A program made the position numbers and the translations under genes. DNA of 64,000 nt from Octopus sinensis (Eukaryota), in NCBI RefSeq assembly GCF_006345805.1, contig NC_043016.1:3844001-3908000 (forward strand), given 5' to 3'. Below, one piece after another: positions 998-60,226 of this stretch. The number at the start of each line of letters is the position of its first letter. Positions within the stretch are counted from its first letter, which is position 1. The notes under the pieces were generated by a model. It was given only the letters and a program-made list of their open reading frames with translations. It did no database searches and had not been told where the DNA came from.

Positions 998-1518
998 AAA
1001 TTAGAAATATTGAATTTCTAAATGTCTCAGAGTGGAGTGGTCGTATACTGTCAACTCAATGTGACAGTCCCGTAAGGGAATTACACCACCGCCATTTAGC
1101 CCTAGGAAACATCGACGTCTCCTGTCGGTTTTGACACATTTTCTGTGTCCTTATATTTGTAAAGAAGAGGCAATCACCCCCGCAAGCCGGAACAAGGCAG
1201 CTGAAGACATATGTTTCTGAGTCTATTGCTCGTCGTCAGTTCAGGGTAGCCTGCCTCGCTCGCTGAGATGACTGCAACCCCTTCGCAATTATATCCTATT
1301 TTCAGTAAGATTTATTTACTGATCACCGAAATTAGAAATATTGAATTTCTAAATGTCTCAGAGGTACATAAGCGGTGGTGAAGCGATATAGTGGTCGTAT
1401 ACTGTCAACTCAATGTGACAGTTCCGTAAAGGAATTACACCAACGTCATTTAGCCCTAGGAAACATCGACGTTTCTTGTCGGCTTTGACACATTTTCTGT
1501 ATCCTTATATTTGCAAAG
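998..1518 (-). repeat. Penelope-like pseudo-LTR, partially tandem-duplicated (direct repeats 998-1164 and 1329-1518)
   Basis: AAATTAGAAATATTGAATTTCTAAATGTCTCAGAG...CCTTATATTTGYAAAG occurs twice. It flanks a hammerhead motif and abuts a PLE RT remnant. Confidence 0.75.
1195..1256 (-). ncRNA. Type I minimal hammerhead ribozyme
   Basis: Minus strand: CTGAA-CTGACGA-C GAG CAATAGA CTC A-GAAAC ATAT GTC-TTCAG. Stem I CTGAA/TTCAG is extended by AGGCAG/CTGCCT; palindromic stem III; GUC cleavage triplet. Confidence 0.85.
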
Positions 1519-1860
1519 GCTTCCATGCATGCTTCAAAGCCCTCATCATCATCGATGTTGGGGTTTAAGGAAGAAACATCCTTGGTTACCAAAATACAGC
1601 CTTTTACACTACTTCGGTGTTTAGAAGATTTGTTCAATTTGGAAACAAAATCAGAAGTATCCCGAGTGTTGGAACTTGATCTTTTAGCAGAAAGCCATCC
1701 AACCATTTCGAAATTTTAGGAGTGCAACATTCATACCCACTGCAAATTAAGGGCGCAATGGAGGAAATATTTCGAAATTTTATTGTGTTTTTGGAAGACC
1801 GCACAATATAGGTGTTCTTCTTTCTGAACATCTTCCAAAAAACAGCCAATCTCTCTTTAT
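1519..1860 (-). pseudogene. Penelope-like reverse transcriptase fragment (frameshifted)
   Basis: PLICSGYECCTPKISKWLDGFL and RDTSDFVSKL...ILVTKDVSSLNPNIDDDEG match PLE RT motifs (RPI..., D..DF, LVTxDVxSLYxNI). Confidence 0.8.
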
Positions 1861-2039
1861 TACCAATAATAGTCGTGCTCTTCTTTTAATAATGATGAGG
1901 AGGAGGCGAAGGAGGAGGAGAAGAAGAAGAAGGAAAGAAGAAGAAGAAGAAGAAGAAGAAGAAGATGAAGAAGAAGAAGAAGAAGAAGAAGAAGAAGAAG
2001 AAGAAGAAAAGGGAGAATAACAATAACAACAGCAACCAA

Positions 2040-2420
2040 TGTGGATACAGTTGTATATTTAAGAGATGAGGAATTATGTACATTATTTACATTATTTACA
2101 TTTGACGGATATTTGTCCGCATATTGTTTGTTGTCGACACAACGTTTCGGCTGATATACCCCCCCAACCTTCATCACAGGCATATAGCGTTGTGGTTAAG
2201 AGCGCGGGCTACTAACCCAAAGATTCCGAGTGCGATTCCAGACAGTGGCCTGAATAATGATAATAATAATAATGATGATGATGATAATGGTGATGATAAT
2301 AACAACAACAACACCGAAAAATTACCTAAGGAAATTTCCCCAAGACACCTCCCGAAACGCTGTGTTAACAACAAACAAGATGAGGACAAATATCCATCAA
2401 ATATAAATAATGTAAATAAT
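2040..2420. mobile_element. Inverted pair of a short element with a tRNA-like head (2177-2255) and a disrupted hammerhead motif
   Basis: 2082-2150 is the reverse complement of 2352-2420. Head has A-box-like TAGCGTTGTGGTTAAG and B-box-like GAGTGCGATTCC. Minus copy reads TGATGA AGGTTG..CAGCC GAAACGTT GTGTC. Confidence 0.65.
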
Positions 2421-2424
2421 GAAC

Positions 2425-2570
2425 GAATGTGAAGTCTGAATACAGAAATAATAGGTGCATTAGGTAGAATTAAAAAAACATCATACAGAAAATAGCACTA
2501 CTAGGCTCCGAACACAAAGCTGCGCTTGATAGTGCAGTGAAAGCAAGTGATAAAAATAAAACTACTAAAT
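2425..2570 (+). mobile_element. Deleted 3' end of R4/Dong-like LINE
   Basis: Matches the reverse complement of 13962-14230 (ATAGGTGCATTAGG, CAGAAAATAGCACTACTAGG, ATAAAAATAAAACTACT). Confidence 0.6.
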
Positions 2571-2580
2571 GGTAACAATA

Positions 2581-2943
2581 TGTGCATCTCTCACTACGAG
2601 CTGAAGTAGTGGGGGAGCATCATAGCCATGTGTTGAGAGGGATTCTTTGGGGTTTGAATAATTCACCTCTGGAAACATGGGTGGTTCTTTCAACATCCTT
2701 AAACAACCCTTATTCAGGGACCTTTTGAGCGGGATGGGCTACTCAACCTGAACAAAATTCTACTGGGCCCCACCTACAAGTCATGTGCTGTTTATCTTGA
2801 TATGAGATCACCATGTCGCGCACATATGGTTGTGATGCATGTGCCTGGTGTACCCTTATCAGACGGGTAGTCATGATGGTATATTGGGCTTCGTTATTTT
2901 TTACCCCAGTGTCACTTTGATGGCATGCACTGCTCCCTCATTC
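2581..2943 (-). mobile_element. Partial copy of the ~520-bp AAT-associated interspersed element
   Basis: Near-identical to 30559-30922 and to the reverse complement of 17173-17540. Confidence 0.85.
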
Positions 2944-4129
2944 AATAATAATAATAATATTAATAATAATGATGATGATGATGAGGAGGATGAGGATGAT
3001 GATGATGATGAGGATGAAGATGGTGATGATGATGATGGTAATTGTTTCTAATATACATACCAGGTCAGTAATTTTAAGGAAACGGTGGTAGTCGATAAAC
3101 CAGTTTATTCCTTTCGGCCCTATCTGGTCACCATCCTCTTAAGTCGTTGAGAGCATATTTCATAACACCCTCCACAATAAGTACTTATATATCCCTATAT
3201 ATCTTCATCTCTTAAATATACAACTGAATAATAATAATGATAATAACAACAACAACAACAACAATAATAATAATAAAAATAATAATAATAATATTAATAA
3301 AAATAATAATAATGATAATAATAATAATAATAATAATAATGATAATATCTTCTCGTAAAATAATAATATCCCGATCGGTAAAAGTTATATCTGCACAGAC
3401 TGGTTTCTTTTATTGTGGCACGAAGTTGACAACTCATTCTCAAATATCACAGAATCAGCTAACGAGAAGAGGTGTCATATAATATGGAGTTGAACTTTCA
3501 TCCCATCGACTGCATTAAGAATTACACATAGTATACCATAGGATATTTAACTTAAAATCTCTTCTAGGTCTCTCTCTCTCCACTGGTACGTTACTTTTCT
3601 CTTTTCGCATGCCTCCGCGATGGTTTTGAATCCGATGGTACCAATCAAAAGGCTGTCAAGTTTTTCTTTAAGTAAACTGTTCCATACCAACTGTTTCCTC
3701 CACCCTTTTTGAAAGAACGTTTGCAATGGATAGCATTCCTCTCTTCACATTTGTCGTAACGGACGCATGTATACTTTTGTTGTTTCCTTTTGTTCGTGGG
3801 TACTATTAATATTCTGCGTTTCAATTTAAATAATAAAGTTTCGTTTGGTTTACTGCATGAAAAATGTATTATTTTGTACATTTTCACTTTTCTTTTAATG
3901 GGCGTGGCGTGAAATATTTCTAGCCGTTTTTTATATGTCGGTGAAGCAAAGAGAAAAAAATTAAACATTTTTCCAAAAATGAAAACAAACTTAATATATA
4001 TATTTTTTTCTTTTACAATCCACGTTGGCGGAGACCTCAACTTTTAGGAAGCTATCTATAAACGAGTACTGGCAAAATGTCTATTTTGGAGAACAAGCTA
4101 TGAAACAATTTTTTACTCCATCTGCACGA

Positions 4130-58471: not shown

Positions 58472-58500
<29 letters not shown>

Positions 58501-58502
<2 letters not shown>

Positions 58503-58696
58503 AGAGGGAAACCACTATGTGGACACCCATATGCTAGAAATAGATCCGCTATGGTCTTACCACTAAGAAGTGTTCTCAAGAAAATTTTAGCATTTTGGTC
58601 GTTTTGCTAAATTTTTCTTGAGAACATTTCTTGGTGGTGAAAACATAGCGTATCTATTTCTAACGTATGGGTGTACACATAGTGGTTTCTCTCTAA
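58501..58696. repeat. Fold-back element between (TA)n tracts
   Basis: TTAGAGGGAAACCACTATGTG...TTCTCAAGAAAATTTTAGCA / TGCTAAATTTTTCTTGAGAA...CACATAGTGGTTTCTCTCTAA. Confidence 0.9.
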
Positions 58697-58808
58697 TTAT
58701 ATATATATACAATTTTACTGAACCTTCATTTTTTTATGCTCGACCACTGGTGTAAAATCGATGTGAATTAAATTAATATCTAATTTCACCCTTATTTAAA
58801 TTAAAAAT

Positions 58809-58862
<54 letters not shown>

Positions 58863-58875
58863 CATATACATATAT

Positions 58876-59276
58876 TAGGAAAAATAAGGAAATGCAGATA
58901 AAATTGATAATTGATAAAACCTCATTTATTATTTATTGATTCTAAAAAGACAATATCTCATCTTACATGTTAACCCTTTGGAAACCTTTCGACCGACTTA
59001 ACATCAATTGGTATAAAACCTTATTTCCTCTATTTTGTCTCACTTTCTCTTCTTTTTCTTTATTTTTACTCTCTGATGAAGTTCTACTATTTAAGTTGGT
59101 GTAATTATTTACAATGGTAATAATAATTATTATTTTTAATAATTAAACCTGATTATGCCTAAAATAGCGTGAACAGAAACAGCTGTAAAATGAGATATTG
59201 TCTTTTTATCATTAATAAATAATAAATGACGTTTTATCAATTATCAATTTTATCTCCATTTTCTTGTTTTTCCTTA
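58876..59276. repeat. Inverted repeat (arms 58876-58967 and 59184-59276) enclosing a hammerhead
   Basis: GATAAAATTGATAATTGATAAAAC / GTTTTATCAATTATCAATTTTATC; AAAAAGACAATATCTCAT / ATGAGATATTGTCTTTTT. Confidence 0.88.
59066..59195 (+). ncRNA. Type I hammerhead ribozyme with long stem II (stem I weakened)
   Basis: CTGATGA(59073)-A GTTC TA CTATTT...AAATAG CGT GAAC A-GAAAC AGCT GTA(59187). The inverted copy preserves GTAAGATGAG, which would restore stem I. Confidence 0.7.
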
Positions 59277-59446
59277 AATATAAACTTTAGTTTATTCCGT
59301 TCTTTGCCTATCATTTATCACCATTAATACTAATACTCATATCACATATAGGTAAGACACCAGTAATTCATTGGACAGCTTTTATAACTTCTAATTGAAC
59401 TCGCCTATATATATATATATATATATCTACATACAAACATACAAAC

Positions 59447-59518
<72 letters not shown>

Positions 59519-59604
59519 AATCCAAACGGGAAACAAAAAAACAACAACATGGAACAATTACAGTATATTATTAATAGGCGCTCAGGAAATGGAAGCAAGC
59601 AGGG

Positions 59605-59642
59605 AGGTATGACGTTTCGAGCAGCGCTCTTCGTCGGGAAAC
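59605..59642 (-). ncRNA. Degenerate hammerhead-like motif
   Basis: Minus: CCGACGA-A GAGC GCT GCTC-GAAACGTC. Core has U>C and stem I is poor. Confidence 0.45.
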
Positions 59643-59770
59643 ATAAAGAAGGAGAGAGAGGAAGGAAAGAAAGATCCCAGAGCGGGCAAAAGGGAAAGAG
59701 AAAAAAGACGACTGGTGTTTACGAGTTGCACATGGTGAAAGGCGGATGTTTACGATAACAAGAGCAAAGT

Positions 59771-59837
<67 letters not shown>

Positions 59838-59855
59838 AATTTATTATATAGAAGG

Positions 59856-59906
59856 AGCTTCTACAGGACTAGAACTGTTTCATTCAAGAGAAATCATCAG
59901 GAAGCT
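59856..59906 (-). ncRNA. Type I hammerhead ribozyme (left arm of palindrome)
   Basis: Minus: AGCTTC-CTGATGA-T TTC TCTT GAA T-GAAA CAG TTCTAGTC CTG TA-GAAGCT; perfect 6-bp stem I, GUA triplet. Confidence 0.88.
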
Positions 59907-59953
59907 TCCTGATGATTTCTCTTGAATGAAACAGTTCTAGTCCTGTAGAAGGT
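59903..59953 (+). ncRNA. Type I hammerhead ribozyme (right arm of palindrome)
   Basis: AGCTTC-CTGATGA(59909)-TTTCTCTTGAAT-GAAA CAG TTCTAGTC CTG TA(59947)-GAAGGT; one mismatch in stem I. Confidence 0.85.
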
Positions 59954-60226
59954 CCTCTATATAATAAATTATTTTACTCTGCTATGTATTGAGTACCTTA
60001 TTTACTGTGGTTAACCCCGAATCAACCCGGGACCTACATATATATATATATATATATATATACAAAATGAGAAAATGGAGAAACATACTTAAATCAATCA
60101 ATCATCAACCATCAGATAATACCCAATCAATACTTTATTACACCATGACATAACAGCAATAACATTATACATAATATATTGCAAATATATACAACCCCTA
60201 TCACTTTTATATATATATATAATATA

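Follow-up and report, generated by a model that had tools for sequence, protein, structure and literature searches.

The window, by which we mean the whole 64-kb stretch of octopus DNA analysed here, contains a genuine, near-perfect palindrome centred between positions 59904 and 59905, inside GAAGCTTC (59901-59908). Its arms are perfectly complementary over 47 bp each (59858-59951) and differ over 67 bp by one mismatch and one 1-nt gap, just as a preliminary description had read them, and there is no other non-microsatellite perfect palindrome with arms of at least 9 bp in the window. At full length it folds at -101.5 kcal/mol (z -21.8; none of 200 shuffles equalled it), in keeping with the long hairpin that had been predicted for a read-through transcript. 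The unit had been delimited as 59838-59970, which holds for the palindrome, but the complete insertion is 59838-60041, about 200 bp, with (TA)n target microsatellite on both sides (59773-59837 on the left, 60038-60062 on the right) and a tail on one. We number the element from the A of AGCTTCC in the native TAGCTTCC, which is +1. The short arm (59838-59906, minus strand; L001 q1..69, 100% to the parent copy) covers +1 to +69 and ends in (TA)n at the first preferred 3' end (...TATAATAAAT). The long arm (59903-60041, plus strand; L001 q1..141, 98%) covers +1 to +141 and consists of the hammerhead and a one-sided PLE tail of ~68 nt (59970-60037, plus strand), which in the parent runs on into the 5' UTR and the ORF. 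Common to both arms is the AGCT overlap at 59903-59906, the junction hot spot and putative 5' end of the element RNA.

None of the 53 open frames between 48000 and 64000 was judged by eye to be a convincing exon, so that host read-through of this copy is neither shown nor excluded. The neighbourhood holds further repeats. A second hairpin element lies in (TA)n at 58500-58697 (93-nt arms, 88% complementary, 12-nt spacer); it has 2097 candidates genome-wide, and its best other copies are 90% identical. Inverted 98-nt arms, 90% complementary and 216 nt apart, adjoin (TA)n at 58870-59281 and are possibly another inverted PLE end. A hammerhead-like core of a different family (CCGACGA-hairpin-GAAA) is found on the minus strand at 59615-59637, 200 nt from the palindrome.

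Two hammerhead motifs stand back to back at the palindrome, one on each strand, as had been recognised before. Both have CUGAUGA...GAAA, an A-CAG/CUG-U stem III and GUA at the cleavage position, and the type I core of CUGANGA, GAAA, NUH and three helices is present. The minus-strand motif (59856-59906; predicted cleavage after 59862) has an intact 6-bp stem I, while in the plus-strand motif (59903-59953; predicted cleavage after 59947) a mismatch at 59952 breaks a stem I pair; their hammerhead-fold probabilities are 0.036 and 0.002, respectively. Stem II consists of 3 bp on a U.U pair, with pair probabilities of 0.12-0.29, and lacks the G10.1-C11.1 pair and the stability expected of helix II in a type I hammerhead. 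Rfam gave no hammerhead match at the gathering score in the window or at E<=10 within 59500-60100, only chance matches of the hairpin type. The full stem III had been thought to allow each motif to work as a monomer. The stem is indeed there, but it is worth -1.4 kcal/mol as a lone hairpin versus -12.8 as a dimer formed through the palindromic CUAG, and two whole motifs co-fold at -25.2 versus twice -7.6. On these folding energies the hammerhead seems to be of the dimer type; its stem II is weak, and we claim it as a motif only. Metazoan PLEs carry minimal and dimer-type hammerheads (Cervera and de la Pena 2014, PMC4209133), with which the octopus motif shares the type I core, an extra base after A9 and a palindromic, dimer-favouring loop 3, whereas it departs from the hammerheads described there in its longer helix III, its very weak helix II and the lack of G10.1-C11.1. 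Between +1 and +51, the variants that recur in the family are confined to N7, loop 2 and loop 3 (four variant columns, p 0.005; a fifth column, in loop 2, appeared in a separate count of 330 arms). This placement suggests selection in the parent element, although part of the hammerhead core was fixed by the search patterns.

The palindrome is one of many. A DNA search of its own genome, in which 40 of 935 candidates were scored, gave 80 matches on both strands, at about 40 loci, and the 16 loci inspected among these genome matches have the same centre and a one-sided tail in unrelated flanks. By exact pattern count, two arms meet within 28 nt at 514 loci and, in a sister subfamily, within 28-30 nt at 80 more (control 0 each time); both figures are lower bounds because the patterns are exact. 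Two arms are thus joined at the same AGCT at no fewer than 594 loci, which bears on the search for other such copies that the preliminary description had proposed. The idea that the sister subfamily, which carries CATAAAT, is devoid of +1 palindromes was wrong, as it has those 80. Arms that keep native upstream sequence number 156, 182 or at most 405 according to three patterns that are not strictly comparable. Among the first 50 of the 514 loci, the junction is a perfect AAGCTT in 24 cases and its 5-nt form in 12, the remainder showing shorter joins, point changes or small insertions.

Nearly all insertions consist of a short arm and a long arm that point away from each other. Of the 3' ends in 248 arms, 108 lie at +141 and 116 in the range +60 to +72, including 69 at +68. 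Both of these 3' ends, with (AT)n behind them, recur as free ends of contigs in two DNA-like runs, each of a different study (37/36 and 12/12 contigs). At the opposite end, 55 of 102 arms start at +1 to +6, 7 at -19 to -1, and 40 run at least 20 nt upstream; these arms came from an exact 27-mer search and were thus chosen without regard to the junction. Since spacer-free or nearly spacer-free junctions also occur at -13 (L067) and -166 (L095), joining at short self-complementary words is general, with +1 as the hot spot. The preliminary description had sought the origin of the palindrome in the self-complementary AAGCTT. A short word is borne out, but not this one, as the parent reads TAGCTT and only AGCT is self-complementary. 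At L117, L165, L094 and L126, two palindromic insertions lie side by side in a few hundred bases of (TA)n.

The parent, L063 (G000:C3:162686600-162696400), has the textbook arrangement of a PLE: an inverted 5'-truncated copy with the tail, a direct copy leading into the ORF, and a 3' copy that stops at the short end, in (TA)n. The ORF lies between two direct copies which, together with an inverted one, make up the partial tandem that defines pLTRs. The same hammerhead and tail directly precede a frameshifted ORF for RT plus GIY-YIG at the C terminus. This ORF, ~2.1 kb long and broken into three pieces, matches RT-EN proteins of ~700 aa at 42-47% and one protein, labelled Octopus vulgaris, at 93%. 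Pfam returned nothing relevant for the three pieces, and no solved structure was matched; one relative matches RVT_1 below the curated cut-off. Read by eye, the protein has DKT, a CxCX5C linker, and CxxC and CxH around conserved E and N, with no CCHH, and it has RWR in L063 and RWK in five relatives. The repeat unit measures ~5.4 kb owing to a long low-complexity 3' part; this part (about 1300-4050), ~3 kb of DNA rich in (TG/TA), accompanies the element and is present in many copies. DKT, CxCX5C, CxxC/CxH, the C-terminal GIY-YIG, a hammerhead, (TA)n targets and a mollusc host are all features of the Hydra clade (PMC8557442), from which L063 deviates by RWR in place of RWK and by a unit of ~5.4 kb rather than generally under 3 kb. 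We file the parent only as Hydra-like, a PLE predicted to encode RT and GIY-YIG endonuclease.

With an RT and GIY-YIG parent, an adjacent inverted 5'-truncated copy, a one-sided tail and pLTRs, the octopus insertions belong with the insertion units of EN+ PLEs. Inverted adjacent copies and one-sided tails are usual for PLEs (Craig et al. 2021, PMC8557442), and palindromes at the inverted junction have been explained by self-priming, probably on an antisense template, in a report whose relevant discussion leaves the question open (Arkhipova et al. 2013, PMC3846280). The octopus family has in common with these units (PMC8557442, PMC3846280) the head-to-head inverted copy, the junction palindrome, the one-sided tail, the terminal-repeat hammerhead and the microsatellite target. 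It differs in that the stump is ~200 bp long and without ORF, that most junctions fall on one base, and that the tail is ~68 nt rather than the 30-40 bp described there. The main text of an Octopus vulgaris repeat annotation (PMC13282606) contains neither "hammerhead" nor "palindrom". Non-LTR retrozymes are likewise short, non-autonomous PLE-related DNA with type I hammerheads (bioRxiv 10.64898/2026.07.22.740005), but they form head-to-tail tandem repeats, whereas the octopus copies are inverted and dispersed, and we rejected this assignment. We also rejected a MITE because of the unequal ends and the retroelement parent; a target duplication is unreadable inside (TA)n. The preliminary description, partly supported overall, had overlooked that the palindrome is a PLE end and a high-copy by-product of insertion.

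How such insertions arise has to be explained from what is plainly established: the parent element, the (TA)n target, the fixed 3' ends at +68 and +141, the +1 hot spot, the varied junctions and the matching subfamily variants in the arms. The account that we favour, and consider probable though far from certain, is that the palindrome represents the shortest of the common products that a Hydra-like PLE leaves on insertion, in which two short cDNAs run off the 5' end of a capped sense RNA and are joined head to head. Evidence for two cDNAs comes from 86 palindromic loci, a sample enriched for perfect ones and partly picked by likeness to the window, which have one tail in 80 cases, none in 4 and two in 2. 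In 72 of the 74 loci that could be scored, both arms have the same loop-2 variant; shuffling gave a mean of 29 and a maximum of 43. There are 18 junction types among the 86 loci, the common types recur in each subfamily, and the three common loop-2 subfamilies and a fourth each include perfect and imperfect junctions. With arms that agree and with varied junction types that recur from one subfamily to the next, a single palindromic master does not appear to exist. At L047, L075, L087, L092, L094, L098 and L101 the long arm is so strongly shortened that part of the short arm's sequence is missing from it, and the long arm reaches further upstream at L031 and L045. Either arm can thus exceed the other, and neither is always a copy of its partner. 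The matching arms, the varied junctions and the extra sequence in short arms together make it likely that the palindrome is rebuilt at each insertion from two cDNAs.

It is possible, as self-priming proposed for inverted PLE copies would have it (PMC3846280), that a single cDNA reaches the 5' end of the RNA, snaps back at AGCT, copies itself, stops at +68 and joins the target. Near-identical arms would be expected from such a process, as would the private variants found on both arms of L149 and L162; moreover, the 5-nt (19/86) and 3-nt (6/86) junctions resemble hairpins with 3-nt loops, which also counts against run-off from a capped end. Snap-back therefore stays alive for some copies. However, as an explanation of the family it is unlikely: the sequence of some short arms is missing from their long arms, which speaks against the simple fold-back of one strand that had been suggested at first, the shortened arm can be either one (11 vs 8, 3 vs 3), the fixed end of the short arm also terminates full-length elements, and joins with no loop at all are the most frequent form (24 of the first 50 loci).

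A different question is why the two cDNAs should so often end at +1. In the window's subfamily and in the TTTT subfamily, TATAAAT starts at -29. The sister subfamily has CATAAAT at the same -29, and no indel has shifted it despite the divergence of the stretch from -19 to -1. When the base at -1 was tallied for +1-starting arms in loci not selected by this base, 101 arms were perfect overlaps, 74 native and 39 other (one of the 39 proved native on inspection). G stands at -1 in 34 of the 38 non-native, non-perfect junctions, where the native base is T or C. The capped end is not the only reading of these G's: in 24 of the 34 the join is made at a G in the partner arm, and the base can be read as belonging to that arm; with such joins removed, G is present in 10 of 14 (p 5e-5 at G = 0.2), some of them possibly templated from CTGATG. 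Genome-wide, 75 arms in two subfamilies bear an extra G after varied bases, and (TA)n is joined directly to G-AGCTT at L096, L223 and L226. At the junctions of full-length L1 copies, a capped 5' end is betrayed by an extra G (PMC11702581), and a putative TATA box has been described in a rotifer pLTR (PMC3846280). From the fixed arm starts, the TATA-like box at -29 and the extra G, we infer that +1 is the capped start of the sense RNA and that run-off there sets the junction. The cap-like G argues for a sense template, whereas antisense self-priming was favoured previously (PMC3846280). In the mostly open-access literature searched, we found no publication in which the palindromic junctions of PLEs are linked with a capped 5' end. 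At G000:C9:25020170, C28:3070667 and C12693:14274 both arms have the extra G, one base apart. At L222, L224 and L234, short direct duplications of the +1 end lie at the junction, each rejoined at G, and look as though synthesis had started, stopped and re-primed.

Instead of a transcription start, the hot spot could conceivably be a 3' splice site (YAG|CTT) or a place where the structure of hammerhead stem I halts synthesis. YAG is kept in all subfamilies, and the YAG before +3 would fit a 3' splice site as well as a capped end. D. virilis Penelope has an intron that extends as far as helix I (PMC4209133), and its promoter is internal and TATA-less (PMC2377424), which likewise weighs against run-off from a cap. 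However, no upstream exon is shared and G-AGCTT is preceded by widely differing bases, the would-be site has only a poor pyrimidine tract, and many arms keep AG, starting at +1 and not at +3, which makes this explanation improbable. The contigs of four short-read runs contain no splice joint and no start sites; they are silent on expression.

If the capped start is correct, the pathway to a palindrome can be laid out in a few steps. The TATA-like box at -29 would start a capped RNA at AGCUUCC, which is the 5' strand of hammerhead stem I. The endonuclease would cut both strands of a (TA)n tract, and the two target ends would each start reverse transcription within the RNA, which would be mostly uncleaved, one of them at +68 and the other at +141. 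If it is the start sites closest to the 5' end that are used, the two cDNAs would run off after 68 and 141 nt; they would end in AGCT and often bear one more C, templated by the cap. These ends would then anneal via AGCT, giving the perfect palindrome, or via the additional C and a G in the partner, or with insertion of a few templated bases, before being filled in. Such a stump is probably a dead end, since it has neither the upstream promoter box nor the ORF, and host read-through would fold it into a hairpin that hides both hammerheads.

There are precedents for the individual steps. A lizard PLE examined in vitro was able to cut both strands and to extend them, with two internal starts that bound the tail, and used uncleaved RNA (PMC11167929); the fixed ends of the octopus element at +68 and +141 fit these two starts. 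The octopus element thus resembles Anolis Poseidon (Frangieh et al. 2024, PMC11167929) in the internal starts and the AT-rich target, and also in a hammerhead at the pLTR-ORF junction and in uncleaved RNA as the main template. It differs in that its ORF starts downstream of the tail and not inside stem II, and the inverted copy is left unexplained in the part of the Poseidon study drawn on here. L1 twin priming (PMC11702581) similarly has cDNA primed by both target ends, microhomology joins and an extra G at capped 5' ends; however, inverted L1 parts barely overlap, while the two octopus cDNAs usually both copy +1 to +68.

Arms that start at the hammerhead cleavage site are rare, so the copied RNA appears to have been mostly uncleaved, as in vitro (PMC11167929). 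Both arms are cut near this site in 10 loci, and an arm so cut is joined to a +1 arm in 11; an arm starts at +46 or +47 in 4/10 of the former, two of them probably one duplicated event, and in 4/11 of the latter. With these 10 + 11 loci vs 514 at +1, we rejected the notion that the junctions mark the cleavage site. The four exact +46/+1 joins could equally reflect slippage between two AGCTTC repeats.

A further possibility is that the palindrome is itself the mobile unit, MITE- or SINE-like, and is copied whole from a few palindromic masters. The hundreds of copies with one centre would be compatible with this, and so would L139 (G000:C1:76371800-76372500), whose eight changes are all A>G on one strand, as if a hairpin RNA had been edited and re-copied. 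Seven of them are private changes in one arm, while the other arms have 0.05 each (330 arms); the eighth is a T>C in the partner arm, that is, A>G on the same genomic strand. The seven sites all have A or U as 5' neighbour, and A or U is favoured 5' of the edited A by ADAR. L139 looks like ADAR hyper-editing fixed by reverse transcription and, if so, the RNA of the family can be double-stranded, in one case. Apart from L139 there is no family-wide excess of A>G (25 A>G and 23 T>C in 330 arms). The suggestion that the palindrome is an ADAR substrate thus receives support from ADAR-like changes in one sister copy, but these are silent on the copy in the window. A palindromic mobile unit is nevertheless quite improbable in view of the 18 junction types that recur across subfamilies, the short-arm ends that vary from +60 to +72, and the absence of arm-specific diagnostic variants at the four columns tested. 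The short-read contigs of four runs list no strand-switch joint at +1, so that the palindromic junction rests on one assembly. No independent read across the window's junction was obtained, but an assembly or library fold-back artefact is scarcely credible when hundreds of loci on many chromosomes share one centre, the arms are unequal and have mutations of their own, and the flanks are unique on either side.

The palindrome is therefore an object of an ordinary class, a dead-end by-product of a known type of element, and the inverted copy, the palindromic junction and the one-sided tail are already published for PLEs (PMC8557442, PMC3846280). What the present analysis adds is that 55 of 102 arms start within 6 nt of one base, the TATA-like box at -29 and the non-native G. 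These features matter because the formation of PLE inverted repeats is stated to be unresolved in the passages concerned of PMC3846280 and PMC8557442, and the octopus family offers hundreds of young, near-identical junctions. They also lead to a precise prediction, namely a capped RNA starting AGCUUCC, with one target strand primed at +68 and the opposite one at +141. When hammerhead palindromes of this kind turn up in animal genomes, a PLE stump should be the first reading, and not a regulatory ribozyme switch. In its broadest form, a proposal that we regard as evenly poised, PLEs would integrate by two-ended reverse transcription of capped sense RNA from two fixed internal sites, followed by a head-to-head join. 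If this is true, it would answer the question of sense versus antisense templates for PLE inverted repeats, and palindromic stumps would be a fossil map of the RNA 5' end. The hammerhead would be seldom cleaved in the RNA that is copied, and the element would seed ADAR substrates across the octopus genome.
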